Source: a virus
DNA length: 59,477 nucleotides
Reading direction: 5' to 3' (one strand)
Virus record (IMG/VR): IMGVR_UViG_3300022851_000003
Positions 1 through 59,477 of this stretch are shown here, piece by piece. The notes under the pieces are model-generated. The model ran no database searches. It saw only the letters and a program-made list of their open reading frames with translations, and had not been told where the DNA came from. Position 1 is the stretch's first letter, and each line of letters opens with the position of its first letter. The position numbers were made by a program, and so were the translations under genes.

Positions 1-127
1 AGGTTAAATAATGGCAGACTCAGTAAGAATCCAAATCATCCGAGACGACGTCGTCGTAGACGACTCATCGGCGGTCCTCGGATCAATGCAAGACGGGACC
101 AAAGTGCTTGACGCAATGGTCGCCGCG
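1..127. repeat. terminal overlap copy 1
   Basis: Identical to 59351-59477. Confidence 0.95.
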
Positions 128-346
128 TTTGCGGACCAGTACGGTATCCACAAAGTCCCCGGTGAAACGGAGGAAGACGATCCCGTTCCAGTTAGCCTTT
201 ACCGAAACTTTTCGTTTCGCATCCGCGAGTTTGCTACCACGATTGTCAAGGCCTACGTCAGCAAGACCGCAGCAAACCAAGCAAAGGTCGCTGCCGATGC
301 CCAGTTCGACGACGCTCTATCAGCAGTAACAATCATAGAGAACTAA
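11..346 (+). CDS. hypothetical protein
   Basis: 111-aa ORF directly after the fibre-like gene; no recognisable motif. Confidence 0.45.
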   Translation: MADSVRIQIIRDDVVVDDSSAVLGSMQDGTKVLDAMVAAFADQYGIHKVPGETEEDDPVPVSLYRNFSFRIREFATTIVKAYVSKTAANQAKVAADAQFDDALSAVTIIEN

Positions 347-347
347 T

Positions 348-1904
348 ATGGCAACTCAAACGCTCGAATTCGACGCACCATCCGGCCTGACGCTCAGTTG
401 CAAGCTGTTTGCGATTGGCTCGGATACTGTCGTTGCCACAGCATCGGCAACTGAAAAGACCAACGATCTGAATCGGTACAGTGTGGCTTATACCGACTTG
501 GCCGCTGGTGCTTATCGGCTCAATGCGTTTGTTGGTGCGGTCGGTGGGTTTGCGAATGAGTTGTTTGATACCCTGGCCGCGACGGGTACTTATTATCCGC
601 GATCTGAGACTGCACCGCTCGACGCAGCCGGAACACGCACAGCGATCGGTCTGGCGGCAGCAAACCTCGATACGCAATTGGCCGACATACCAACCGTCTC
701 GGAGTTTGATGCAAGGACATTGGCATCGGCTGATTACTTTGTGGTCGGTGACTACACCGCACCCGACAACGCAAGTATTACTGCGATCCTTGCCTCCACT
801 GACGAACTACAAACGAATCAAGGCAACTGGTTGACTGCTACGGGTTTCAGTACGCACTCAGCCGCCGATGTTGTCACCGCACTCGGCACCGGCTCGACGC
901 TGACCGATTGTGCAACTGCTGACGTTTCGGGACTCGCTACCGCCGCATCAATTGCAGGACTCAATGACTTTGACCCCGCAGTCGATATAGTCGCCCGTGT
1001 CACGTTGACCGATACCACGACCGCCAATACGGACATGCGAGGCACAGACAGTGCGTTGCTTGCAGCAAACTACACTGCACCGGACAACGATAGCATCACA
1101 GAAATCCTACTCGACACCGGCACCACGATTCCAGGCACGATCACTACCGCACAGGGCACGCTGACGAAACTCGAAACGGCACTCGAAGCTGACGGATCAA
1201 GTGGCTGGCAGTACACGACGCTGGCTCTGGAAAACGGTCCTGCCGATGGCGGCGGCGGTGGTGATGCGACACTCGCGAAGCAAGAGGAAATCCTAACCGC
1301 AGTAGGCAATGTGGCGAATGTGTCTCTTACCGGACCCAATGTCGTCAACGTCAACGTCACCAACATTGCGGACGATGCGGCTATCGAGAATGCCACGGTT
1401 CGCGTCTTCAAGGCCGGTTCGTCTGAATCGAAAACGACCGACAGCGAAGGAGACATCGAACCATTTGCACTCGCTTCTGCGACTTGGACACTGGCAATCG
1501 ACGCCGAGAACTTCGGGAGCTACGTTGATACCGCGTTCGTGGTGGGCGGTGACATCTCCGAGGAAGTGCAACTCACCGTCAGTTCAATCTCTCCACCGTC
1601 CGCTGCCGATAAGTCCAACGTCGGACTTCGTGTCATCACGCAGTTTGGCGTGCCTGTGAAGTTCCAGAACGTTCGCGTGGAAATCTTCGAGAACGAATTC
1701 GGCGCGTCGAGCTACGTCGTCAATGCGGACGTTCCTTTGGCGACCGATGCAAGCGGGAACGTGCAGTTTGAGGTACTCAAGTCAACCGAGTTCACCGACG
1801 GAGCGGGCGTGTACCAAGTCACCGTCGGCACCGGACGAGACGCCAAGACGTTTAAGTTCGCGGCACCCTCGACGCCAACCTATCAACTCACGCAGAAGAT
1901 CTAG
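348..1904 (+). CDS. putative virion structural protein (Thr/Ala/Asp-rich, fibre-like)
   Basis: 518-aa ORF in structural arc; composition typical of fibre or decoration proteins. Confidence 0.5.
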   Translation: MATQTLEFDAPSGLTLSCKLFAIGSDTVVATASATEKTNDLNRYSVAYTDLAAGAYRLNAFVGAVGGFANELFDTLAATGTYYPRSETAPLDAAGTRTAIGLAAANLDTQLADIPTVSEFDARTLASADYFVVGDYTAPDNASITAILASTDELQTNQGNWLTATGFSTHSAADVVTALGTGSTLTDCATADVSGLATAASIAGLNDFDPAVDIVARVTLTDTTTANTDMRGTDSALLAANYTAPDNDSITEILLDTGTTIPGTITTAQGTLTKLETALEADGSSGWQYTTLALENGPADGGGGGDATLAKQEEILTAVGNVANVSLTGPNVVNVNVTNIADDAAIENATVRVFKAGSSESKTTDSEGDIEPFALASATWTLAIDAENFGSYVDTAFVVGGDISEEVQLTVSSISPPSAADKSNVGLRVITQFGVPVKFQNVRVEIFENEFGASSYVVNADVPLATDASGNVQFEVLKSTEFTDGAGVYQVTVGTGRDAKTFKFAAPSTPTYQLTQKI

Positions 1905-1907
1905 GAT

Positions 1908-3056
1908 ATGAAAACGCTCTACGATCTATTCTCGCACGTCCTTGATACCGAGGACGCTCACGACGACCATGTGAATCGTCGCCGTGCGTTGCGTGCTGCC
2001 GTCTGGGGATCGGAACAGACACAAAGCAGGCACCAGTGGGCGAACTACACCGTGACCACCGTGGCGAGACTCAACGCACCACTTACCGTGTTGGCAACTG
2101 TCTCGGCTACCGGCCTCGTTACACTCGATGCGGCTGAGGACGCACTGCCGGCGTGGGTGCAAGACGCCAGTGTCCAATACAGTGACCACACCTTTGTTAT
2201 CAGTCGACGAGTGTCCGATACGACGCTTCAGCTCGACGGGTGGGGTCTCGGTGCGATCGCCACCAACACCAGCATCCGAATTGTTGACGACCGATACGTT
2301 TTGCCCGATACGGTTCGCGAAATCTTCGAGGTGCGTGACGAAGACTCCGATATTGAACTTTACAGTGTCGGGCCAGAGCGATTTCGGCTGATGCAGCACA
2401 CGCAAAACGGAACACCTAGCGATCCGATCGCGGTCACCGAGGTGCGCACGACGGGACCACTGGGCCAGCAAACCGAACTGCGATTCGTACCCGCGCCGTC
2501 AAGTCAAACGGACATCGCCGTCTCCTATGTGCGTCGACCGCGCATCGCAAGTGCCCTCCACTCCTGCGGGAGCACGGCGATTGCAGGATCCACGGTGACG
2601 GTTTCCAGTTCGCTACCGTACGACCTGCTGTCTCCCGACGGTTTAATGCTTGTCGTCTCGACCACCGCAAGCGAGCCGGAACCGTCCTTTGGCTTTGGTG
2701 TTGATGAGCACGCTTCCCAGATCGGCGTGGTGCATCGTGTCAAGAGTCTCACCAGTCGCACAGAACTGGAACTCTTTGAGAGCGTCACGGCGGTCACCGG
2801 CAAAGCGGCAATCCTGACGCACGAACTCGACTTTCCCGAGGTTGCCTACAACGCGGCACAGCGATACGCCGAGGCCGAGTTTCGACGTGTCGGTCGTGGG
2901 GATGTGGGTGAGTATTGGCAAACGATCCAAATGGCAGATCGAGAATTGCGACTGGCCATGGAACAGGAATCCAAATTCACCCGACAACCGAGCGTCCCTC
3001 ACTCGCGACCGGCGACCTACAATTACCCTGAGAATGTTTCGCCGGGGGTCTCCTGA
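1908..3056 (+). CDS. hypothetical virion protein
   Basis: 382-aa ORF, 4-nt gap to upstream gene. Confidence 0.5.
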   Translation: MKTLYDLFSHVLDTEDAHDDHVNRRRALRAAVWGSEQTQSRHQWANYTVTTVARLNAPLTVLATVSATGLVTLDAAEDALPAWVQDASVQYSDHTFVISRRVSDTTLQLDGWGLGAIATNTSIRIVDDRYVLPDTVREIFEVRDEDSDIELYSVGPERFRLMQHTQNGTPSDPIAVTEVRTTGPLGQQTELRFVPAPSSQTDIAVSYVRRPRIASALHSCGSTAIAGSTVTVSSSLPYDLLSPDGLMLVVSTTASEPEPSFGFGVDEHASQIGVVHRVKSLTSRTELELFESVTAVTGKAAILTHELDFPEVAYNAAQRYAEAEFRRVGRGDVGEYWQTIQMADRELRLAMEQESKFTRQPSVPHSRPATYNYPENVSPGVS

Positions 3057-3520
3057 TGCCGGCCAACACTCTGCCCACGTACGACGACTGGACGATCGCC
3101 AAGAAGCATCGCGAGATCATCCTCGAGTTGCTGCCATCTGGAATGAGGGCGCCGATCCTGCAACGATCGATCCCTGGATTAATCAACGGACGGTTCACCA
3201 AAGACTTCAAGGCGGGCACGTACCTGATGCCACTGAAAAGCCAAATCGAGGATACGTTTTCCGATCGCCACGATGTCGCCCGCAGTACCATGCTCGTCGT
3301 CGCCGAGGGAGAAACCAGCATCCAATCCAACAGAACCCCGAACTCGATGGTCTTCATGGAACGAATCAGGAATCGTTTCGCTAGCCGACGGATCATGAAC
3401 ATCGTCGGTGAACTTTACTCGACGCACACCTCTCCCGAATACGACGTGGACGATACAATGTCGCGTCGACTCGAGATTATCCCCATTGTCCTAACCACAA
3501 CCATCCGCGAGATTCGCTAA
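3056..3520 (+). CDS. hypothetical protein
   Basis: 154-aa ORF, start overlaps upstream stop. Confidence 0.45.
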   Translation: MPANTLPTYDDWTIAKKHREIILELLPSGMRAPILQRSIPGLINGRFTKDFKAGTYLMPLKSQIEDTFSDRHDVARSTMLVVAEGETSIQSNRTPNSMVFMERIRNRFASRRIMNIVGELYSTHTSPEYDVDDTMSRRLEIIPIVLTTTIREIR

Positions 3521-3592
3521 ACAACCGACCACCCCAGGCGACCCTTTGAGATCGCCCAATCACACAATGCTTCATCACGCCCGCAAGGCGTC

Positions 3593-4588
3593 GTGGACAA
3601 CGTACTTACGGGGATGGCAGTCATGGCATGTAATTTTTGCGGCAGTTTTGGGATCAACACGAAGTTCGGTTTCGCTCCCAGCGGCGCTAACGTGGACGCG
3701 ACGCTCGTGGCGGCCACCACTCGTGAAGAAATCCTCGTCGAGAACCTGAACTACAGCGATAGTGTGGTCGGTGGACGCGGCATCACCGGATGGATGGACG
3801 CTTCCTCGCTGAAACTACGCAACGGCCAAAGGCTTGTCTCCGGTGGGTTGATTATGGAAATCGGCCCGAACCAGATCGCACCCTGGCTCAGCGCCCTCGT
3901 TGGCAACAGCGCGGCGGCGGTTGCGAACGTGTCAACGACCAAGGAGAAGTGGGACGCGATTCCGTTCGACCTCTCGGTTGAACGCGACAACGTCGATCAC
4001 GGCTACCGCTACTGCGTTGTCAACCGCGCCGTCATTCGAGGGCGATCAAACCCAAGAGACCAACAAGGCCAAATCGTCCAGATGGCATTGAGTTTCCTGG
4101 GCGTCGAAGAGGAAGACATTACGTTCCCCGGCGCGTTGGCATTGCCGAGCGACGCGCAGTACCCATGGCTCCTCGGTGACGCGAGCCTAGATTACGGTGG
4201 TGAAACCTGCTCGCTGATCTCGTTCGACATCACAATCGAAAACATGCTCAAGCCTCTGTTCCGCAACCGACTGACCCCTGGTTGCTTTCGATCGCTCGGC
4301 CGAAAAATCACGATGGACTTTGCCGTTCCCTACGGGGCCGATTCGTACGCGGGATACATCGACGACAACTCGGCGGACGCGGCAGCCGCACTCACGTTCG
4401 CGTCGACCAACCTGCCCGCTGCCGTCTCGGATTACTCAACGATCTTCACGTTCCCCCAGACGCGTCGGATTGCCCACAACTACACGACCGCGAGCAAGGA
4501 CGAAATTCCGTTGCAAATGAAACTCCAGGCTTACATCAAGGGGTCTTCGCCAGCAATGACGATTGCGAACGTGATCTCGGCCGCGTAA
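3593..4588 (+). CDS. hypothetical virion protein
   Basis: 331-aa ORF in structural arc. Confidence 0.5.
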   Translation: MDNVLTGMAVMACNFCGSFGINTKFGFAPSGANVDATLVAATTREEILVENLNYSDSVVGGRGITGWMDASSLKLRNGQRLVSGGLIMEIGPNQIAPWLSALVGNSAAAVANVSTTKEKWDAIPFDLSVERDNVDHGYRYCVVNRAVIRGRSNPRDQQGQIVQMALSFLGVEEEDITFPGALALPSDAQYPWLLGDASLDYGGETCSLISFDITIENMLKPLFRNRLTPGCFRSLGRKITMDFAVPYGADSYAGYIDDNSADAAAALTFASTNLPAAVSDYSTIFTFPQTRRIAHNYTTASKDEIPLQMKLQAYIKGSSPAMTIANVISAA

Positions 4589-4591
4589 TCC

Positions 4592-6046
4592 ATGGCATTC
4601 CAGCGGCGAAACGATGCCCCCGCCGATCAACGGCGGGAGGACGCAACCAAGTTCATGCAGGAGCTTACGGGCATTCCTGCGCGATCCATCGGTTCGCAGA
4701 TTTCCCCCATGCCTGCGGTTCCGCAGCCATCGAGCCCGCTTGCCTCGGTCGGACAGCCACCTACCGAGAATTCGCTGGAGGCTATCCCCGCAGCCGCAGC
4801 CGTGTCAACGATCGACGTGTTCGCGGGTATGGAAGATCCCGGCGATCCACCGATCACCGCATTCGATGAGTCGCCTCCTGACACAAACGAAACTGCGATA
4901 GAGCAGGTCGAATTGACGCTGGAGGACTCGGTCGCTACGGAAGCGGAGACCGCACCTGAGCCTTTGCCTGACTCTTCGATCGACACAGAGCCAGCGTCCG
5001 AACCCGCGATTGAGCAATTGCCCGAAACTGAGACGGCTCCCGAAGCGGAGATCCCGCCCGTTCCAGTCGCAGAGATGCAGCCGATGGTTGCGCCTGACGT
5101 GTCACATTCCGATAGGTCGCCCGATTTCGTGACGCCGGACCCTGTCGAGCCACAGCAACTTGATTCGCCGGATGAACCGATCGTGTCAGCGGAACCACCG
5201 ACCGCCGACATTCCATCGACGCCACAGTCCAACCAAGGCGACGACCTGCCGTTCTGGGCTCGCTATTCCGCACCCGTTGACGTGGAGGTTATTCAGGCCG
5301 GCGGCAATCCAATGATGGCCCGGCGATCGGACTTGACGCACGAACAGAAGATGGAAATCGCCGAGCGAAATACATCCGAACGGCAACAACTCCGCGAGGA
5401 ACGCCAGGAGCGATACGATCAGCGACAACCCGAACGAGACAGCCCGCCGTCGAACGCAACGAGCGATAGCACCGAAACGATCCAAGCACCCCTGTTGTTC
5501 TCCGATCCGCCTGCGAGTGATTCAGCACCAACGGAACCGACGCAACAGAGCGAGCCTGACAACGATCCGCCTGAGCAGGCACCGCAATCGTCTCAGACCG
5601 ACGAGGTGGCCGCTGATAGTGATACCGCATCGCCACCGAACATTGCTGCCAATGTGCCGCTCACTGCTGAGAATTTTGAACTGATTCGCCAGATGGTGAT
5701 GGAAGCCACAGGGCGACCACAGTCAGGGCAGCGGACGATCCCGGTCTCGCCCCAACCGTCCACGCTCAACCCGCAGGTCGCCAATGCAAGTCCAGTTGCA
5801 TTCGATCCCGAACCCACGTCGCAGATCGACACATCGCAAGACGCTCAGTACACCGAGCCCTTGGCGATGGCAAATGATTTCATCGACCGACACAATGAAG
5901 TCATCCGAATGATTATCGACGCCTTGTCCCGACTGACCGCTGGCTACACAGTCCATCGAGCGCGACTCTCAACGATCCTCGATCGACTTGACTCCGAATC
6001 GCAATCGAACGAATACGGTGAAGGAGACTCGACATGGATGGGGTAA
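4592..6046 (+). CDS. acidic Pro/Glu/Asp-rich low-complexity protein
   Basis: 484-aa ORF; long runs such as PEPLPDSSIDTEPASEPAIEQLPETETAPEAE. Confidence 0.5.
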   Translation: MAFQRRNDAPADQRREDATKFMQELTGIPARSIGSQISPMPAVPQPSSPLASVGQPPTENSLEAIPAAAAVSTIDVFAGMEDPGDPPITAFDESPPDTNETAIEQVELTLEDSVATEAETAPEPLPDSSIDTEPASEPAIEQLPETETAPEAEIPPVPVAEMQPMVAPDVSHSDRSPDFVTPDPVEPQQLDSPDEPIVSAEPPTADIPSTPQSNQGDDLPFWARYSAPVDVEVIQAGGNPMMARRSDLTHEQKMEIAERNTSERQQLREERQERYDQRQPERDSPPSNATSDSTETIQAPLLFSDPPASDSAPTEPTQQSEPDNDPPEQAPQSSQTDEVAADSDTASPPNIAANVPLTAENFELIRQMVMEATGRPQSGQRTIPVSPQPSTLNPQVANASPVAFDPEPTSQIDTSQDAQYTEPLAMANDFIDRHNEVIRMIIDALSRLTAGYTVHRARLSTILDRLDSESQSNEYGEGDSTWMG

Positions 6047-6789
6047 CGTTCTACCACGGCGACTTCACGCATCGACCTTGCGAGGTGTACCCGAAACGGT
6101 TCAGTGTCCAAAACCTTCGTGGTGCCAATGGTATCACCTGGGCCAAGAAGTACACGCTGGAGATTGGTGGTGATCTCGTCGGTGCCGATGGAACCGAACT
6201 CGATGCGAACGAGGTGGTGGCCCGCATCGCCCTCCTCGACGCGGCCTACGCGGACGAGTACCAAAACTGCGGGTTCACCATGCAGGACGGCGCGACTACC
6301 GTTCACACGTTACTGACAAACGACGCCGCGAACCTAACTGGCAACCGCATCGTCTACCGTTCATGGGAGCACCTTCACCCAGGCGAGCTTGCCAACACCC
6401 GGTCTTTTGCTGTTCGCTTTGAAGCCCTGTTTCGACACGACAACGGCCCCGTGTTTCAATACACCGAGCGAACGCGCAAGTTTGGAACCGGCGGGCCAAT
6501 GTGGAAATTGTACGAAGCCGCCAACGGAACAATCCAAAAAGTATTCGTCACCCCCAAAACCAAGGTGGTTCACATCACTGCGGGCGAACTGGTCAGTGGC
6601 GTCCCGTTGCCGCCAACCGACCCGCTCTGGCCCCTGGAAGAACAAGGGTGGCGGCGAGAGATTGAGATCGGAACGCCGGTCGACCATGGTCATCCGACCG
6701 GCAAGTTCACGCACTACCGTACCCGCTGGCAATACCACTTTGAGAGACTGGGTCCAAGCGCTCTGACCTCGACACCGAGGTACGCGTAA
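6034..6789 (+). CDS. hypothetical protein
   Basis: 251-aa ORF, overlaps upstream gene end. Confidence 0.5.
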   Translation: MDGVTFYHGDFTHRPCEVYPKRFSVQNLRGANGITWAKKYTLEIGGDLVGADGTELDANEVVARIALLDAAYADEYQNCGFTMQDGATTVHTLLTNDAANLTGNRIVYRSWEHLHPGELANTRSFAVRFEALFRHDNGPVFQYTERTRKFGTGGPMWKLYEAANGTIQKVFVTPKTKVVHITAGELVSGVPLPPTDPLWPLEEQGWRREIEIGTPVDHGHPTGKFTHYRTRWQYHFERLGPSALTSTPRYA

Positions 6790-8171
6790 TGCTCTCGATC
6801 AATCTCGCTGGGTTCCCTCCGGTTGTTCGCGCCCGCGTACGCGGCAGTTGCAATAGCACTCCCGGGCGTGCGACGGTTGAATGCGTTGTCGGAAACGGCA
6901 CCGCCCCGCCATGGCCTGACATGACGACGCTCACGATGTCTGACGGATCAACGTCGCTCTCCTGGGGTGACATGCGGGTCGTCAAATCGCCTCGCGTTCG
7001 TGGCGGTGTGATGAGGGTTGTGCTCGAAGACAGTCGTTGGAAGCTGCGAGAGACGATCCTTGGCGGCGATTACAATCAACTCGATTCGTCCGGTGTATCG
7101 CTGGTTGCTTCCCAGACGACCATGTCGGCGCTGGCTTCGACCGTCGGGTCTAAATCGTTCCTCGACGTGGTGGCTGGCGGGGTGATTCCCGCATACACAC
7201 CACCGGCTCCGTGGGGCGGATCGCTGGCATCGCAAGCACTCGACGGGTTGTTGCGGGACGCGGTTTGCCGACTTCATTACGATCCGACGACCGGACGGTA
7301 TAGCATTTGGTCGGCCGGAACCGGCAACTACCCCGCCCTCGCCAATCGCTTGTACTCGCCCTCACCCAATCGCGGAATCCGAACACTGTACGTTCGCAGC
7401 GCACCGATCCTCTACGAAGCATCCATGATCGCGGAGGCCGTGGTGGAAGATGGCACCGGGCAAATCGTCAACATCTCCGCACATGACCCCGATGAATACT
7501 TCAGCGGATTCCCCTCAATCGCCGACCCTGTCCTCCAAAGAAAACTCAAGGAGGGTGCCTTTCGATTGTGGCAAGTATCCGCCACCAACAAGCGTCTCAA
7601 GAACCACCGAGCCTTGTCGTTAATCTCCGGCAGTAACGAAGCGAAGTACATGGGAGCCAAGCTGGTTCACGCCGACCTCGCCGGGCAGATGCAAGAACTC
7701 GATGTCACACTCGTGCGATCCATCTCTCACCGCGACGAGACCGGGTACGGCATCTACTACAGTCCCACGCCGTTTCTTGAATCCTCGGGCGCCAGCCTGA
7801 AGACCACAGCGGAAATCATCGCGGCCTACAACACTGACTCAAACGCCGGACTTCAACGTGAGATCGTCACTCGAGCCGTCTCGTCCACCGGGTCTGATCG
7901 CGCAATCAATGTCCACTGGATCCGACCGATTGACTCGTCCCAACCGGACGTGCCTGCGAGCCAATGGACGACGCACCTCAATGCGGTCGCCAATGCCTTG
8001 CAAACCTCCTTCGCGAACAACCCTCACACGGTCACGCTGCCGGGACTCGTCGCATCGCCGCCTAGCGGTCACATCGGAGCCTATGAGTATTACGCACAGA
8101 TCCAACCGACCGCCACGTTGCTCACACGATTCGCTCTCGACTTCGACGCCAGCCCAGGAGACATCACCTAA
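6789..8171 (+). CDS. hypothetical protein
   Basis: 460-aa ORF. Confidence 0.5.
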   Translation: MLSINLAGFPPVVRARVRGSCNSTPGRATVECVVGNGTAPPWPDMTTLTMSDGSTSLSWGDMRVVKSPRVRGGVMRVVLEDSRWKLRETILGGDYNQLDSSGVSLVASQTTMSALASTVGSKSFLDVVAGGVIPAYTPPAPWGGSLASQALDGLLRDAVCRLHYDPTTGRYSIWSAGTGNYPALANRLYSPSPNRGIRTLYVRSAPILYEASMIAEAVVEDGTGQIVNISAHDPDEYFSGFPSIADPVLQRKLKEGAFRLWQVSATNKRLKNHRALSLISGSNEAKYMGAKLVHADLAGQMQELDVTLVRSISHRDETGYGIYYSPTPFLESSGASLKTTAEIIAAYNTDSNAGLQREIVTRAVSSTGSDRAINVHWIRPIDSSQPDVPASQWTTHLNAVANALQTSFANNPHTVTLPGLVASPPSGHIGAYEYYAQIQPTATLLTRFALDFDASPGDIT

Positions 8172-27264: not shown

Positions 27265-28233
27265 TTAATCCTTCTTGGCTAGCTCGTTGAGCAACTCGCC
27301 CAACTGCTTGCTTTCCGCCGGGCTCAAATCTTCATCGCCATCGAACTCGCCGCCGATCTCGATCAACGCGTCGTGACTCGATGCGGACAGGAGACGACGT
27401 TCGTACGATGCGAATGCTTCGCTCTTGCCGTCCGCTGATTCGGCGATCAGTGGCGATTCTTCTTGCATCTCTGTCGACAAGTCCAAACCGCTTCCCATGT
27501 CGCCGAGTTTGCGTCGTTGAATCCCGGTCGATCGGACGTGTCCTTCAAACACAACATCCTCGTCGTCCTTCTCAAACGCATCGCGAATCTCTGCCGACAA
27601 TGGCAACCACTTGGACACACGACGGAACACCGTTTTTTTAGCCATTTCGCTCCAATCGGTTTTCCATGGCCCGTTGTTGCCAGACTTGGACCGATTGCGG
27701 ATTGCCTCAACGGCATCCTTGGACATGACCTCGCACTTGGGTTCGCGGTCCTTCATTCGGACTTCGCAATACACCGCGATCACATCACCCTCGCTTTCCG
27801 GCTTGTCCTCGTCCCGTCGCAAATACCACGGGACATGATCGGCCACGATGCCTTTGCTGTACTCAAACAGGTCGCCTTCATGGACAACGTCGGCATGGAT
27901 CGACGACACAACACCGGATCGGTACGCCAGTTCCACCAATCCCTTGTAGTCAATGATGAGCTGGCAAGTGGTTCCATAGGGAATCAAGTGCGCCCTGCGA
28001 CCATCGGGCTCGAGTCCCCATTGGCTCAAGCTCATCATCGCCTCGAAGAACGAAGCCTGAGAACACTGGGCCAGTTTGGGAGTGCGGGTCAGTGCCGTAA
28101 TAGCAACCCGCACCATCCGCTCGGGCGTCATGTGGTCAGGGAGTATCTTGGCGATCTCGTTCTTAAAATGTTCACCCGAAAGATGATCGCGAATCGTTGG
28201 GGCGGACTTCGCAATTTGTTTGTCTTGACTCAT
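27265..28233 (-). CDS. recT: RecT-family single-strand annealing protein
   Basis: FKNEIAKILP...RMVRVAITALTRTPKLAQC...GLEPDGRRAHLIPYG...IIDYKGLVELAYRSG matches the RecT core. Confidence 0.8.
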   Translation of the reverse strand: MSQDKQIAKSAPTIRDHLSGEHFKNEIAKILPDHMTPERMVRVAITALTRTPKLAQCSQASFFEAMMSLSQWGLEPDGRRAHLIPYGTTCQLIIDYKGLVELAYRSGVVSSIHADVVHEGDLFEYSKGIVADHVPWYLRRDEDKPESEGDVIAVYCEVRMKDREPKCEVMSKDAVEAIRNRSKSGNNGPWKTDWSEMAKKTVFRRVSKWLPLSAEIRDAFEKDDEDVVFEGHVRSTGIQRRKLGDMGSGLDLSTEMQEESPLIAESADGKSEAFASYERRLLSASSHDALIEIGGEFDGDEDLSPAESKQLGELLNELAKKD

Positions 28234-28282: not shown

Positions 28283-29290
28283 TCAGCTTGCCTCCCATTC
28301 TTTCTTGTAGTTCAGGTAATTCGGCATTGGCAGCGACAACACATCTCCGTAATGTTCGTGCTTCCAGATACCGCTCGACTCGCATCGACGCAGACCACGG
28401 AACGCCTTCTCGATCTCTTCGACCGCTTGATCGATCCAAGCCGGTTCCAATTCGTAGACCTCCACGCGATAAGGTTTCTTTTTCTCAACGCAGACGAAGT
28501 GAAACGGAACCTCGCGACCCAGCAACGCGTTGACCATGCTGCCGTACAAGACTCGTTGCCGGGCATACCCGAAGTCGGCGACCGCGTTGGCAAACCCTTT
28601 CGGTGATGCACTCCGCACGGTCTTCAAGTCGGCAACGAAACCGCCCATCGCCGTCTCGCTATATCGATCCAACTTGCATCGCGTCAGAATGCCGGTGCCC
28701 GCGTGCTCGCCGATCAACGGAACCTCGCTTTCACCTTCACCGAACAGCAGACGATTGGCCGAGTCGTGAGCACGCAAGGCGTCCTCCATGTCACGAAGCT
28801 GATCGTACGTCTCGTTCGACGTGACAACCTGGCCCTCGGGAACAACGACCGACGATCGAACCTTTTGCTCGAGCTGATCGAACTCCTCGCTTTTCATCAA
28901 CACGCTGCCCTTATGCAACTTGGCCCAATCCGTGTAAGGCTTGCCACGGCAATAACCTTGCTCGTTCAACACATGATCGGGAATCCGAGTCGCGATCCGA
29001 AACTTCGAGGCGATCTTCAAATACTCATTACGCGAAACCCCGGTCACTTCGGGATCCAGCACGGTCGACGTTTGCAGCCCACCCTCGAGCGTCATCTCAT
29101 GAAGGGCGGTGCCGAGCAATCTATCCGGCGTATCGCCACTGGGTTCGATCAGACCCGTGTTGTAAAGACCGTCGTACAGAGCCGGGTCATCGAGGAACCT
29201 GCTCATCTTCGAGTTACTGACGCCTGGCCCAGCGTGATACTCTTCGTTGGTGCCAGCATCAAAACGTTCAATAGCGGTGAACTGAATCAC
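28283..29290 (-). CDS. RecE/YqaJ-like PD-(D/E)xK exonuclease
   Basis: N-terminal EEYHAGPGVSNSKMSRFLDDPALY typical of exonuclease VIII-like proteins; directly upstream of recT; GTG start overlaps csrA stop. Confidence 0.6.
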   Translation of the reverse strand: MIQFTAIERFDAGTNEEYHAGPGVSNSKMSRFLDDPALYDGLYNTGLIEPSGDTPDRLLGTALHEMTLEGGLQTSTVLDPEVTGVSRNEYLKIASKFRIATRIPDHVLNEQGYCRGKPYTDWAKLHKGSVLMKSEEFDQLEQKVRSSVVVPEGQVVTSNETYDQLRDMEDALRAHDSANRLLFGEGESEVPLIGEHAGTGILTRCKLDRYSETAMGGFVADLKTVRSASPKGFANAVADFGYARQRVLYGSMVNALLGREVPFHFVCVEKKKPYRVEVYELEPAWIDQAVEEIEKAFRGLRRCESSGIWKHEHYGDVLSLPMPNYLNYKKEWEAS

Positions 29291-29466
29291 TTATCATTAC
29301 TTTCATTCTTGGGTTGGGTTTGAATAATGTCATCCCGATGGATGTCGATGGTCCGATCCGCGTCGATACCGATACGAACCTTGTCGCCACGAATGTCAAC
29401 GACAACGACCTTGATGTCCTTGCCAATCATGATGGCTTCACCAATGCGTCTACTAAGAACCAACAC
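29287..29466 (-). CDS. csrA: CsrA/RsmA-family RNA-binding regulator
   Basis: VLVLSRRIGEAIMIGKDIKVVVVDIRGDKVRIGIDADRTIDIHRDDI aligns with CsrA ([46 protein letters not shown]); GTG start 6 nt after GGGAG. Confidence 0.7.
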   Translation of the reverse strand: MLVLSRRIGEAIMIGKDIKVVVVDIRGDKVRIGIDADRTIDIHRDDIIQTQPKNESNDK

Positions 29467-29509
29467 GCCACACTCCCTTTGGTGTTGAAGAACAGGACTT
29501 TCAAAACAT

Positions 29510-29594
29510 TCGAGGCGATCGGAATCGAACCGACGCACGCCACCTTTCCGCAAACGCTTCTTAAATGGCCGCTCTACCAGTGAGCTACGCCTCG
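29510..29594 (-). tRNA. tRNA-like element with non-canonical anticodon region
   Basis: Acceptor CGAGGCG/CGCCTCG, D-arm GCTC-ACTGGTA-GAGC, T-arm GTCGG-TTCGATT-CCGAT; a 4-bp stem with a 23-nt loop replaces the anticodon arm. Confidence 0.4.
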
Positions 29595-29976: not shown

Positions 29977-29994
29977 CTCATTCCTTTCGAGCAC

Positions 29995-30043
29995 AAAAAA
30001 ACCCCGGTTCGTTCTGGAGTGTGCGGCCGAAACGAAACGGGGT
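29995..30043 (-). terminator. intrinsic terminator-like hairpin plus T6
   Basis: Minus-strand stem ACCCCGTTTCGTT/AACGAACCGGGGT with 17-nt loop followed by TTTTTT, 16 nt upstream of the next RBS. Confidence 0.45.
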
Positions 30044-30266
30044 AGGCCGAAGCCTTCAAAAGTTGAGTTGTCGACCGCACGAGTGGAAGATTAAGCGAGC
30101 GGCTGCGTGATTCCAGATCGGTGACCACGGACAATCACCGGCACCCGGCTAGCCAAGGATGGCGACGGCGCACCGAGGCTGACCGCAGGTAAAAGTTTCG
30201 GATTTCTTTGCAAACCGACAAATATCCATTTCCCCCGACTCAGGTGTCTCGATCCCCATCCATGTC

Positions 30267-30290
30267 GTGGTCACCAAATTGGTCACCAAA
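30267..30290 (+). repeat. candidate integrase arm-type site (GGTCACCAAA x2)
   Basis: GTGGTCACCAAATTGGTCACCAAA; second copy at 30516-30539. Confidence 0.45.
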
Positions 30291-30419
30291 CGGCGTGCGA
30301 ACCAACGCTCACGCCACGAAACGCAGGAATCCCCTTGCCTCCTATACGCAAAACAGCCCACGCGAATCAGGTTCACGAAGGCTGAGAGACGGCTAGCGTA
30401 AGACAAAGGGATTTAGGAT

Positions 30420-30463
30420 CCAGTTCCTTTACTGGAGTGCAGGTTCGATTCCTGTCAGCCCTA
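30420..30463 (+). other. tRNA 3' fragment (candidate attP core)
   Basis: T-arm GCAGG-TTCGATT-CCTGT plus acceptor 3' strand CAGCCCT-A; no complementary 5' acceptor strand upstream. Confidence 0.45.
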
Positions 30464-30515
30464 CTTATAAGAAATGTTTCACTTTTCAAAACCAATCAAA
30501 GTCAGGAAGACTCCC

Positions 30516-30539
30516 GTGGTCACCAAACTGGTCACCAAA
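30516..30539 (+). repeat. candidate integrase arm-type site, copy 2
   Basis: GTGGTCACCAAACTGGTCACCAAA overlapping the integrase 3' end. Confidence 0.45.
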
Positions 30540-31706
30540 TCACGATTGTTTGTACGGCGATTCATCGAAGTCGATCTTCCCTTGCAGATCACCGACGTAG
30601 AATTTCCGCGTCGTTGTCTCGCTCGAATGCCGCAGGATCTCCTGGCACAGTTGGATAGGCATCCCACGCAGGCTCCATCGCGTGACCATGCTCGACCGGA
30701 AGTGTTTGGCCGTGGCCGTCTTCGGTGGCGACCCGGGTTCGGCGATCACCTCGGCCTTGGCTCCGATCGCGGAGATCAGCTTGGACAGAGCGGTTCGGTC
30801 TTTCACTTCGCCGGTCTCGCAACGCGGCTGGTAAATCGCTTCCGTCCGATCCGCCCGCTCCCGCAGGTGCGATGCGAAGTCGTTGGTAATCCTGGCGACC
30901 TGCGCACGCCGGTTCTTCTGGGCGGAAGTCCACGACATCATCGGTGTCGGCGTGTCGAGTCCGATCGGGTAATGCCAGTCACGGCGGGTTGCGTGCATCC
31001 CCAACGGCTCTCGCATCCGACAACCACTGAGCCAAAGAGCTTCCAGGTATTCCTGAACACTCGCCGCCGACCGGGATCCAACCAGGCCCGGGCAAACGTC
31101 CTGCATCTTCCGCAGCGATTCCTCACTGATCGGGATCAACCGCATCGCAGGAAGGTTCTGCTCTTGTCGGCCACGTCTTCGATTCGGCGGCATGTATCGC
31201 ATCAACTCCAGGGAAGCCGCCCACGAAAGACCGCTTCGGAGCGTTGCCATGTAACTCGGGATCGATCCGACCGCGATCGGCTTAAAGCCATCAATCCCCC
31301 GTCGAAGCGCAGTTTCCACCGAGGCGAGGAACAGAGGGGACACGTCCGAAAGAACGAACTCCCCTTGAATGTCCCGGCCCGCAACGGCATCGACGCGTTT
31401 ACAGACGGCAGACCACTTGTATCGGTTGTCGCTCGATGTGTCACTGAGATGGTCAGTCAGGTAGCGATCGCAGAAACGATCCCACGTCCATCCCTCGTTC
31501 CCCGAATTCAGCTTGGAATTCAGTTTGCTCTGAAGCTCGTCGGCCAGTTTATCGGCCGCTCGCTTCGATCTCTTGGAACGGGTGATGATTTCGGTCTTCT
31601 GGGTCTTAACAGACCGCGAGCCGAAGGGCCGCCACTTCAAGTAGTAGCAGCCCTTCGACGATTTCCAAAACGCGCTCACCCGCACAGTGGGCGCACAATG
31701 ATTCAT
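30540..31706 (-). CDS. int: tyrosine integrase
   Basis: C-terminal catalytic region KHFRSSMVTRW ... LRHSSETTTRKFYV (HxxR, H, Y); next to tRNA-derived att core. Confidence 0.8.
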   Translation of the reverse strand: MNHCAPTVRVSAFWKSSKGCYYLKWRPFGSRSVKTQKTEIITRSKRSKRAADKLADELQSKLNSKLNSGNEGWTWDRFCDRYLTDHLSDTSSDNRYKWSAVCKRVDAVAGRDIQGEFVLSDVSPLFLASVETALRRGIDGFKPIAVGSIPSYMATLRSGLSWAASLELMRYMPPNRRRGRQEQNLPAMRLIPISEESLRKMQDVCPGLVGSRSAASVQEYLEALWLSGCRMREPLGMHATRRDWHYPIGLDTPTPMMSWTSAQKNRRAQVARITNDFASHLRERADRTEAIYQPRCETGEVKDRTALSKLISAIGAKAEVIAEPGSPPKTATAKHFRSSMVTRWSLRGMPIQLCQEILRHSSETTTRKFYVGDLQGKIDFDESPYKQS

Positions 31707-31981
31707 GGGGTTTTCGACGATTCCTTTGTCCGAGATGCCGCGCCCGACTTCCGCCGACGCTCGGCCTTAGCTTCCACTGTATCCACTTTGGTCGCGCCGA
31801 TGACCGCATTCTTGAAGTCCAGACCCAGAACCATTAGGCATCCTTCCCAGGGTTCGGAGTGGACACATTGCTCGCGAACGAATCGCTTCACCTCGGCCAT
31901 CGACTTCCCGAGGATCTCCCGTAGTTCATCGCAGGTGTATAGAACGTCGTCTTCAATTGCTCTAAATCGGGCTTTTGCCAT
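31703..31981 (-). CDS. excisionase-like DNA-binding protein
   Basis: ORF 31703-32026; ATG at 31981 gives MAKARFRAIEDDVLYTCDELREILGKSMAEVKRFV; stop overlaps int start. Confidence 0.4.
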   Translation of the reverse strand: MAKARFRAIEDDVLYTCDELREILGKSMAEVKRFVREQCVHSEPWEGCLMVLGLDFKNAVIGATKVDTVEAKAERRRKSGAASRTKESSKTP

Positions 31982-32129: not shown

Positions 32130-32155
32130 AGCACGCCTGCCAGCGTGCTTTTTTT
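32130..32155 (+). terminator. intrinsic terminator
   Basis: AGCACGC-ctgcca-GCGTGCT followed by TTTTTT. Confidence 0.5.
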
Positions 32156-32577
32156 TATGCGCGGTCAGTTCATCGACTCGCCTCCTTTCTGCGTGAGCGC
32201 GTGAATACACTTGTATTTCTGAACTTTGTTCTCCGCGCAGCTTCCCAGATGACTAATATCTGAGTGCGGAGGAAGCGCCATTGAAGTGAATCCATTCTGA
32301 GGGATTGGCTTAGATGGTCCGGCATCTGTGTCGTTAGCACATTCGCCGGCCTTCGTTTTTGTTCGGGGATCATAGCGGCAATTGGTCGACGATCAAGGGA
32401 GTTGGTGGAAAACATCCACTAAGCAGCGAGTGCGGGTGCCCAAAATACACCGCCTGGTGACACGTTTGGTCCCAGATCGCCCAGCAAGAAAAGAGAAAAC
32501 CCAGAGCCTCGGGACTCAAACCCGCTTGGTTGAAAGGATGTGTCTCACCCTGGGTTCTCTCTTGGGGAATCGCAGGA

Positions 32578-42142: not shown

Positions 42143-42361
42143 ATGTGGGATGACATTGACGACGAGGGAATCGTTGCGGGCCGAGAAATCGAAACGCACT
42201 GGAAGTCATGCGGCGGGTTCGGGATCGACTGGGATCGAAACGTGTTTATCGTCGAAGGCGACGGCGGGCATGTGAATCTTGAAATTCGGATACCGCTATC
42301 GGATCTTGTAGACGCTGGATTTACCCTGCCAGACAAAGGCAGCAGCAAGAGCAATGGGTAA
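42143..42361 (+). CDS. hypothetical protein
   Basis: 72-aa ORF. Confidence 0.35.
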   Translation: MWDDIDDEGIVAGREIETHWKSCGGFGIDWDRNVFIVEGDGGHVNLEIRIPLSDLVDAGFTLPDKGSSKSNG

Positions 42362-58337: not shown

Positions 58338-59357
58338 ATGTCTGGCACATCCCTCGATCTATCGCAAATTCGCACCGACGCTCTCACGAGCGCCGCGACG
58401 TTTCGGACGTTGATCGGTGTGTACTCGACTGCGGACGTCGATGGGCTGATCGCTGCGATTACAGCGTTGACAAGCGAGGACATTGACACCCTTGCTGAAA
58501 TCAACGCGATCATTGGAGATGCCGATGTTGCGTCAGTGTCTTATGTCGATGGACTGGCAGCGAACTACGCCACAGCGGCACAGGGGGCACTTGCTGACAC
58601 CGCGTTGCAATCCGCCGACATCACAAGCGGTGCGATCACGGCGGGGACGGGAGACATTGATTTTGACGCTCTAGGTGGTGCAGGGTCGCCTCTTGTTTTG
58701 ACTGCTTCACTAGCGACTGAAGTCCCTCTAACAGTCAAAGCCGCAGCAAGTCAAACGGCCAACTTGACTGAGTGGCAGGATAATGCTGGGACTAATCTGA
58801 CTTGGGTCGACAAACTCGGTAATATCTATCTACAAGGTGCAGCCAGTAGATTATTTCGAATTTATATGGAAGGTTCTAACCCGGTACTAGATGCCACTGT
58901 CGGAGCTGCGTCTGCGAGGATAAGCCTAAAAGGCGCGCCTGTTAGACTGATGGGAAACGTGGAGTTTAGCAACGTAACAAACCAGATAATGGCTCAAATA
59001 ATCACGAGTAGTTTTGACGTCCAACTGATCGGTAATACCGCTGGTAGTTTCTCTATATCTATTCCACAATCGAGCAACGGAAACCAAGGCAATGAAACTC
59101 TCTCGATCACTGGACAAACAGCCGAGGAACTTTCTACCAATGTAATTGTTGGCGGCGATGTCGTGATAACGGCTGGTGACGGAGCATCAGCTAGTGCCGG
59201 TGCTGCTGACGGAGGTGATTTAATTCTCCAAGGTGGTACAGGATACGGGACCGGGAGACAAGGGCTTATACTGGCTAGCAATTTACCTACGTCTGATCCC
59301 ACCGTTGCCGGAGCACTTTGGAACGACAGCGGCACTCTTAAAATATCAGTAGGTTAA
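58338..59357 (+). CDS. tail-fibre-like protein
   Basis: Ala/Thr/Gly/Ser-rich 339-aa ORF ending AGALWNDSGTLKISVG; stop lies in the terminal overlap. Confidence 0.5.
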   Translation: MSGTSLDLSQIRTDALTSAATFRTLIGVYSTADVDGLIAAITALTSEDIDTLAEINAIIGDADVASVSYVDGLAANYATAAQGALADTALQSADITSGAITAGTGDIDFDALGGAGSPLVLTASLATEVPLTVKAAASQTANLTEWQDNAGTNLTWVDKLGNIYLQGAASRLFRIYMEGSNPVLDATVGAASARISLKGAPVRLMGNVEFSNVTNQIMAQIITSSFDVQLIGNTAGSFSISIPQSSNGNQGNETLSITGQTAEELSTNVIVGGDVVITAGDGASASAGAADGGDLILQGGTGYGTGRQGLILASNLPTSDPTVAGALWNDSGTLKISVG

Positions 59358-59477
59358 ATAATGGCAGACTCAGTAAGAATCCAAATCATCCGAGACGACG
59401 TCGTCGTAGACGACTCATCGGCGGTCCTCGGATCAATGCAAGACGGGACCAAAGTGCTTGACGCAATGGTCGCCGCG
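59351..59477. repeat. terminal overlap copy 2
   Basis: Identical to 1-127. Confidence 0.95.

Follow-up and report, generated by a model that had tools for sequence, protein, structure and literature searches.

The region at nt 30113–30539 of the window (the whole 59,477-nt stretch of viral DNA that was analysed) is very probably the attP of a temperate Pirellulaceae phage of ~59 kb, with a core copied from the 3′ part of a tRNA-Leu(UAG) gene, an adjacent integrase gene that serves it, and putative arm sites. An attP had been suggested at this position from the letters of the DNA alone (the sequence-only reading), and the suggestion is borne out by a 57-bp identity to a host tRNA gene, by a layout that is kept in seven relatives, and by three relatives that are integrated at tRNA-Leu.

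Genome and gene neighbourhood

The terminal 127 bases of the window are duplicated (nt 1–127 are the same as nt 59351–59477), so the genome assembled as a circle of about 59.35 kb. It is that of a phage in the free circular form, and at the DNA level it shows no resemblance to the phages in GenBank. Leading up to the attP, the minus strand carries genes for RecT (nt 27265–28233), a DUF3799 PD-(D/E)XK exonuclease (nt 28283–29290) and a CsrA homologue (nt 29287–29470; Pfam CsrA, E 1e-18), followed by a tRNA-like gene (nt 29510–29594; Rfam tRNA, 48.2 bits, gathering threshold 29). The order then continues on the same strand with a small ORF, a 545-bp non-coding stretch, the integrase gene (int) and an ORF of 92 aa. 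Beyond the whole attP, and on the int strand (minus), lies an intrinsic-terminator-like hairpin with a U7 run (nt 29994–30043; stem 30043–30001, U run 30000–29994), which was missed by a simple terminator scan because its loop exceeds the limit of the scanner.

Several other features of this neighbourhood were observed. A CsrA homologue is found close to the attP again in two distant relatives, L033 (nt 6773–6961) and L036 (nt 5395–5586), the gene content of which is otherwise unrelated to that of the window. The tRNA-like gene at nt 29510–29594 has perfect acceptor, D and T arms and an expanded anticodon arm, the stem of which measures 7 bp and the loop 17 nt, with an insertion of 18 nt compared with the Rfam model; it is not long enough to be a group I intron. 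ARAGORN overlooks this gene in the window. Two nucleotides of the extended stem are changed in the strain variants L006 and L029 (UU to CC), and ARAGORN calls this version as a 96-nt tRNA with a 4-base anticodon. On the far side of int, a 44-bp sequence (nt 32506–32549) shares 95.5% identity with a stretch of Xanthomonas phage Kintu that has no annotation (PP313117.1, nt 42203–42246); its reverse complement holds the T-arm-like sequence GCGGGTTTGAGTCCCG, and a search of Rfam gave no family match. A strong hairpin of the terminator type, GCACGCCTGCCAGCGTGC with T8 behind it, is present at nt 32131–32157 (plus strand), where it surfaced as a sub-threshold Trp_leader match.

A tRNA-Leu(UAG) fragment as the probable core of the attP

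The proposed core (nt 30409–30465, plus strand) is, judging from the alignment and from an exact 45-mer match, a genuine 57-bp 3′ fragment of tRNA-Leu(UAG). The sequence-only reading had placed a T arm and a 3′ acceptor strand at nt 30439–30463 (GCAGGTTCGATTCCTGTCAGCCCTA), and these coordinates are correct, but the fragment is not 25 bp long, as was then thought: it extends left through the variable arm and the anticodon loop to nt 30409. From its left end, the core takes in the final 3 bp of the 5′ strand of the anticodon stem (nt 30409–30411), the anticodon loop TTTAGGA (nt 30412–30418), the 3′ anticodon-stem strand (nt 30419–30423), the variable arm (nt 30424–30438), the T arm (nt 30439–30455), the 3′ strand of the acceptor (nt 30456–30462) and the discriminator A (nt 30463), and it ends 2 nt further on. 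Between these boundaries the window is identical to the host genes at 57/57 positions, and in the alignment the flanks on both sides are unrelated. The fragment thereby agrees base for base with the 3′ portion of a tRNA gene of the host, as is expected of a tDNA attP, and both in the window and in its relatives it starts at the anticodon stem-loop, as is expected of an anticodon-centred site.

A check against host tRNAs had been recommended with the sequence-only reading. When run with the 45-mer at nt 30416–30460, it identified tRNA-Leu(UAG) in ten Pirellulaceae genomes (Rhodopirellula, Novipirellula, Allorhodopirellula, Neorhodopirellula, Aporhodopirellula and Pirellulaceae MAGs), where the exact match always falls within a full tRNA-Leu(UAG) gene (10/10). 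A 24-mer of the window is also carried by four unrelated viral contigs, and when these are aligned the conservation runs left through a class II variable arm as far as the anticodon stem-loop TTTAGGA of tRNA-Leu(UAG).

The 5′ half of the tRNA is absent from the attP of the window. ARAGORN found no tRNA in the window, and Rfam gives a sub-threshold score of 19.7 bits here. The earlier statement that no 5′ acceptor strand is present also stands, as the apparent complement GGCTGA (nt 30380–30385) occurs at chance level. A resemblance of nt 30378–30408 to the 5′ half of the tRNA in a MAFFT alignment was likewise dismissed as chance: local alignment of the left flank against the 5′ half scores 7, a value equalled by ~25–30% of shuffled sequences or random genome windows. 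The interval nt 30419–30436, considered as a possible anticodon stem-loop, is made up of the 3′ strand of the anticodon stem and the class II variable arm, and the true loop is at nt 30412–30418.

Putative arm-type repeats

Two flanking repeats had been noted from the sequence, and their presence is upheld: nt 30266–30290 and 30515–30539 are 25-nt copies with 96% identity. Each includes a doublet of 11-bp units with a 12-bp period. The P′ arm doublet (nt 30516–30539, plus strand) consists of TGGTCACCAAA units at nt 30517–30527 and 30529–30539 and directly abuts the stop codon of int at nt 30540, and the P arm doublet (nt 30267–30290, plus strand) has units at nt 30268–30278 and 30280–30290 in the same orientation. 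These four exact matches (starting at nt 30268, 30280, 30517 and 30529) all lie within 273 bp, and elsewhere in the 59 kb there is a single match with one mismatch, against about one expected. A fifth, inverted copy, additional to those of the sequence-only reading, is found as a distal single site at nt 30113–30130 (minus strand, CCGTGGTCACCGATCTGG); it matches the repeat at nt 30514–31 in 16 of 18 bases. The repeat unit is near-palindromic (TTGGT-G-ACCAA, 11 bp). As in a complex attP, the repeated motif is unlike the core and is found on both arms with a fixed spacing. Strain variants of the phage differ by four SNPs in a region of 611 bp, all of them outside the proposed sites, each of the five being intact and without variation.

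Short repeats of a second class were also looked for in the P arm. Those of the window (AGGCTGA, CGGCTAGC) were rejected, as they agree with the chance expectation for 7–8-mers in 600 bp; they form the pairs nt 30147–30154/30391–30398 (CGGCTAGC) and nt 30171–30182/30374–30385 (CAC-N2-AGGCTGA), with one copy beside the core and the other just inside the distal inverted site. In two relatives such repeats are longer, with an exact 17-mer present twice in L036 (160–176 and 393–409, region coordinates) and an 11-mer present twice in L032 (177–187 and 405–415, region coordinates). The longer repeats of the relatives may be real, for example the 17-mer of L036, and second-class repeats may represent sites for an accessory protein.

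Integrase and the adjacent 92-aa ORF

The gene next to the P′ doublet (nt 30540–31706, minus strand) encodes a protein of 388 aa that, on the strength of profile and fold comparisons, is a member of the tyrosine recombinase/phage integrase superfamily (PHROG_1 integrase, E 3.4e-10). Its match to Pfam PF00589 scores 19.2 bits, below the gathering threshold of 27.1, and most of its homologues carry this domain. R230, R337, H360 and Y370 do not vary across 31 homologues, of which at least 90% conserve H335 and K264. The AF2 model (pLDDT 88) predicts an N-terminal three-stranded sheet with a long helix (residues 10–68), a helical domain for core binding and a catalytic domain. The best Foldseek match of this model is full-length lambda Int (1z1b_A, 399 alignment columns), and a probability of 1.00 was obtained for lambda Int, Tn1549 Int, XerA/H and Cre. 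The predicted N-terminal domain superposes with 1.8 Å rmsd on the arm-binding domain of the integrase of the Yersinia HPI (PDB 3jtz), a fold match that is not discriminating. All 39 homologues of the integrase come from Planctomycetota or metagenomes, and a tblastn search of 50,697 GenBank phage records gave no relative.

The stop codon of a small ORF (92 aa; nt 31703–31981, minus strand) overlaps the start of int. This ORF accompanies int in every relative that was examined, the remaining flanks being unrelated. It gave no significant match in Pfam, NCBIfam, PHROG or the PDB, and matched no DNA-binding family, so a classification as an excisionase was not adopted; its position makes it a candidate excision or directionality factor.

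Relatives in the attP state

Seven relatives in the attP state (L030/31, L032, L033, L035, L036 and L037), with integrases 44–57% identical to that of the window, were obtained from the protein database and contig look-ups. An integrase-based search of IMG/VR and JGI metagenomes gave only the window phage and one 44% relative. The seven share one layout: the int stop, a doublet with a 12-bp period, a tRNA 3′ fragment, a second doublet in the same orientation, and an inverted copy. After the inverted copy there is a hairpin, usually with a T run (L030, L033, L035, L036 and L037; the hairpin of L032 has no T run), and then the next gene. ARAGORN found no full tRNA in the attP-state loci L030–L036. 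For the window and five of the relatives, the distance between the motif centre and the centre of the anticodon loop is 80–118 bp for the P′ doublet, on the int side, and on the far side 99–144 bp for the P doublet and 242–308 bp for the inverted single site; L037 is comparably arranged. A doublet is also present at the int stop in L019, L020, L021, L030, L032, L033, L035, L036 and L037. In several relatives (L019, nt 7124–7152; L033; L035; L036) the P′ doublet is inside the last codons of int, which means that the presumed binding sites of the integrase also code for its C-terminal tail.

The tRNA-derived block of the relatives begins at, or not more than 2 nt from, the 5′ end of the anticodon stem. 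Its sources are tRNA-Cys(GCA), tRNA-Leu(CAA), tRNA-His(GUG) and tRNA-Leu(UAG), and the anticodon stem (C/A)TGGA...TCCA(G/T) is common to all four target tRNAs. The sharing of TGGA/TCCA may mean that the stem, and not the anticodon, is the element recognized in the core.

The consensus of 26 doublet units is aaTTTGGTGACCAa, with G as the central base in 25 of the 26 and with both flanks conserved in a roughly symmetrical manner. Although the unit is nearly palindromic, this central G, and the inverted orientation of the distal site in every attP examined, indicate that the site is read directionally. Two relatives have a different motif, TTGGTACCCA in L033 and TACTGACCA in L037, in each case at all five sites. 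By comparison of the aligned sites, these are two independent concerted switches, and the change of all five sites together suggests that one protein probably reads all of them. The description of the repeats as plausible arm sites is strengthened by the conserved layout and by the motif change in two relatives, and they are here regarded as putative arm-type sites.

Occupied and empty target sites

Three chromosomal relatives of the integrase were found: L020 (69% identical), L021 (54%) and L019 (53%, Planctomycetes bacterium TBK1r). Contigs of integrated relatives are ENA ERZ25074695 ctg339298_6x_l, GenBank CP036432.1 (near 5.45 Mb) and Logan SRR15216799_42192. In each of them int is followed, on the opposite strand, by a repeat doublet and a complete tRNA-Leu, with the anticodon UAG in L020 and L021 and CAA in L019. 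The tRNA beside int thus has a regenerated appearance in all three integrated relatives, an observation that covers the int-side end of the elements. In L020 and L021 the host genes rplI-ssb-rpsF-pth lie beyond the tRNA-Leu, and in nine of the ten Pirellulaceae genomes tRNA-Leu(UAG) adjoins rplI-ssb-rpsF and has no integrase nearby. From this gene context, the integrase-free tRNA-Leu(UAG) loci are recognizable as empty sites, and L020 and L021 as occupied ones. The element at tRNA-Leu(UAG) in L021 (also L022, nt 1–3789) bears genes for a Cap4 nuclease, an AAA_15 ATPase and Mrr_cat. It resembles a defence island rather than a prophage, which indicates that the int-attP module serves more than phages.

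An identical integrase is encoded by 11 contigs, all of them free, genome-length (51–60 kb) and in the attP state; metagenomes in which the phage occurs include IMG 3300028222, 3300019828 and 3300022848 and SRR7528870. Neither the exact attL pattern nor the exact attR pattern is present in IMG/VR, the attL pattern is likewise absent from the JGI metagenomes, and no GTDB representative genome has the 45-mer twice. A lysogen of exactly this phage was consequently not found in IMG/VR, the JGI metagenomes or the GTDB representatives.

The IMG/VR contigs L001 (nt 5519–5542), L002 (nt 6560–6583), L003 (nt 8104–8127) and L005 (nt 7692–7715) each contain a 3′ piece of another tRNA-Leu(UAG) variant, in which the T arm and acceptor are the same as in the window. 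These contigs have an unrelated tyrosine integrase on the 5′ side of the fragment. With an unrelated integrase, on the opposite side, and a different tRNA variant, they were rejected as relatives of the window system; a second integrase lineage appears to use the same tRNA independently.

Proposed mechanism and alternative explanations

In the mechanism proposed, the catalytic and core-binding domains of the integrase would bind the two strands of the anticodon stem, which make up an imperfect inverted repeat (AGGGA/TCCAG in attP and CTGGA/TCCAG in attB), and strands would be exchanged over the 7-bp anticodon loop. In the window this would make AGGGA (nt 30407–30411) and TCCAG (nt 30419–30423) the core-type Int sites and the loop at nt 30412–30418 the strand-exchange (overlap) region. 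A crossover in the T arm seems less likely than one in the anticodon loop, because the tRNA-derived blocks of the relatives begin at or near the 5′ end of the anticodon stem, matching Islander class A; both the crossover position and integration by this particular phage are inferred. The N-terminal β-sheet/helix domains of Int would hold both doublets and the distal inverted site (five copies of aaTTTGGTGACCAa), bridging the arms to the core and folding the 427-bp attP into an intasome, as in lambda-type systems. Integration would rebuild an unchanged tRNA-Leu(UAG) beside int from host 5′ sequence and phage 3′ sequence, the displaced 3′ tRNA fragment would remain at the far end of the prophage, and int would be parted from the hairpin and U7 terminator at nt 29994–30043.

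The most likely reading of the five repeats, and a probable one, is that the N-terminal domain of Int binds them. The TTGGTGACCA unit is, however, a near-perfect 11-bp palindrome with roughly symmetrical flanks, which is typical of dimeric HTH proteins and unlike the arm sites of lambda, and since the 92-aa ORF has been inherited with int in every relative, its specificity could equally track the motif switches; the fold of the N-terminal domain does not discriminate in favour of Int as the repeat binder. The core could then function as proposed, with the five sites bound by the 92-aa protein, as a directionality factor or regulator and the chief rival of Int, or by a host factor, an arrangement that we consider unlikely though worth keeping in view. 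Sites for directionality factors are normally found on one arm only, whereas the repeats occur on both, with conserved spacing to the core and with the P′ doublet at the int stop, as fits arm-type sites. Their strict orientation (the near-invariant central G of the doublet units and the distal site always inverted) argues for an asymmetric reading. Int is also predicted to have the extra N-terminal domain expected of arm-binding integrases, and the 92-aa ORF is without a match to any DNA-binding family.

Another interpretation is that the tRNA piece is a decayed phage tRNA gene or an evolutionary relic, and that the phage has given up integration for a purely lytic or episomal life. In its favour, every contig of the phage that was found is free and genome-length, the attL and attR patterns were not found, and another tRNA-like gene is located nearby (nt 29510–29594). 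A pseudogene would decay evenly, and this is difficult to reconcile with the 57/57 identity to the host tRNA-Leu(UAG) and the abrupt edge at the anticodon stem; in addition, the int ORF is intact with its catalytic residues conserved, the five arm sites are unchanged among strain variants, with the SNPs falling between them, and close as well as distant relatives are integrated at tRNA-Leu. We therefore regard a relic as quite improbable. Still less can be said for a coincidence of a T-arm-like sequence and repeats that arose by chance and have no function, which we would put at close to zero. While neither Rfam nor ARAGORN calls a tRNA here, a chance origin of the tRNA match and the repeats is refuted by the 45-mer, found exactly in ten genomes and solely in tRNA-Leu(UAG), and by the layout conserved in seven divergent relatives, and four exact 11-mers inside 273 bp also speak against it.

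Comparison with known systems

Tyrosine-integrase islands and prophages have been catalogued in Islander (Williams 2002; Hudson et al. 2015, PMC4383910), where 3′ fragments are listed for 3760 islands and anticodon-centred sites for 2083; the commonest class combines an anticodon-centred subsite with a 3′ fragment. The window resembles this class (class A) in having an attP with a 3′ tDNA fragment that starts from the anticodon stem-loop and an adjacent int, and in the regeneration of the tRNA beside int that would accompany integration. It differs in the host phylum, here Planctomycetota, and in an integrase lineage without a relative in the 50,697 GenBank phage records.

The likeness to phage lambda extends to a heterobivalent integrase of the tyrosine type with an additional N-terminal domain (both predicted in the window), repeated arm-type sites (putative in the window) that are on both arms and differ from the core sequence, a long P arm and a short P′ arm, and a small gene overlapping the start of int, like lambda xis. 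A terminator beyond attP on the int transcript has a position comparable to tI/sib, and by this positional analogy int might be subject to retroregulation like that by lambda sib/tI. In contrast to the window, the lambda core is not a tRNA gene, and the lambda arm sites are non-palindromic and arranged 2+3, as against 2+2+1 here; the two integrases are only ~12% identical. Mycobacteriophage L5 integrates into tRNA-Gly, and Haemophilus phage HP1 into the anticodon stem-loop region of a tRNA-Leu, and both use arm-type sites, which in L5 include adjacent pairs. These pairs resemble the doublets of the window, although L5 and HP1 differ from it in sequence family, site motifs and site number, and tblastn against GenBank phages detected no homology.

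Significance

The attP described here is a well-formed, ordinary example of a classic design, and it brings nothing conceptually new to site-specific recombination. What is new is the identity of the host tRNA, the fifth site, and the comparative support across a Planctomycetota-specific integrase lineage. The integration module of an uncultured 59-kb phage, repeatedly assembled from metagenomes and assigned to Pirellulaceae hosts, has been delimited at base-pair resolution. Planctomycetes are genetically hard to handle, and both their phages and the tools for their genetics are scarce; the ~1.9-kb int-attP cassette could act as an integrating vector, its target in tRNA-Leu being 100% conserved across several genera.

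A wider proposal, for and against which we see the scales as level, is that the Planctomycetota-restricted integrase lineage constitutes a natural series of orthogonal Int/attP pairs, in which the arm specificity has been switched at least twice (TTGGTGACCA to TTGGTACCCA and to TACTGACCA) and the target has moved among Leu-UAG, Leu-CAA, His-GUG and Cys-GCA. The covariation of arm sites across the lineage represents a clean natural experiment on the co-evolution of a site and its binding protein and, if the proposal is true, the orthogonal Int/attP set could seed tools for site-specific integration in Planctomycetes.
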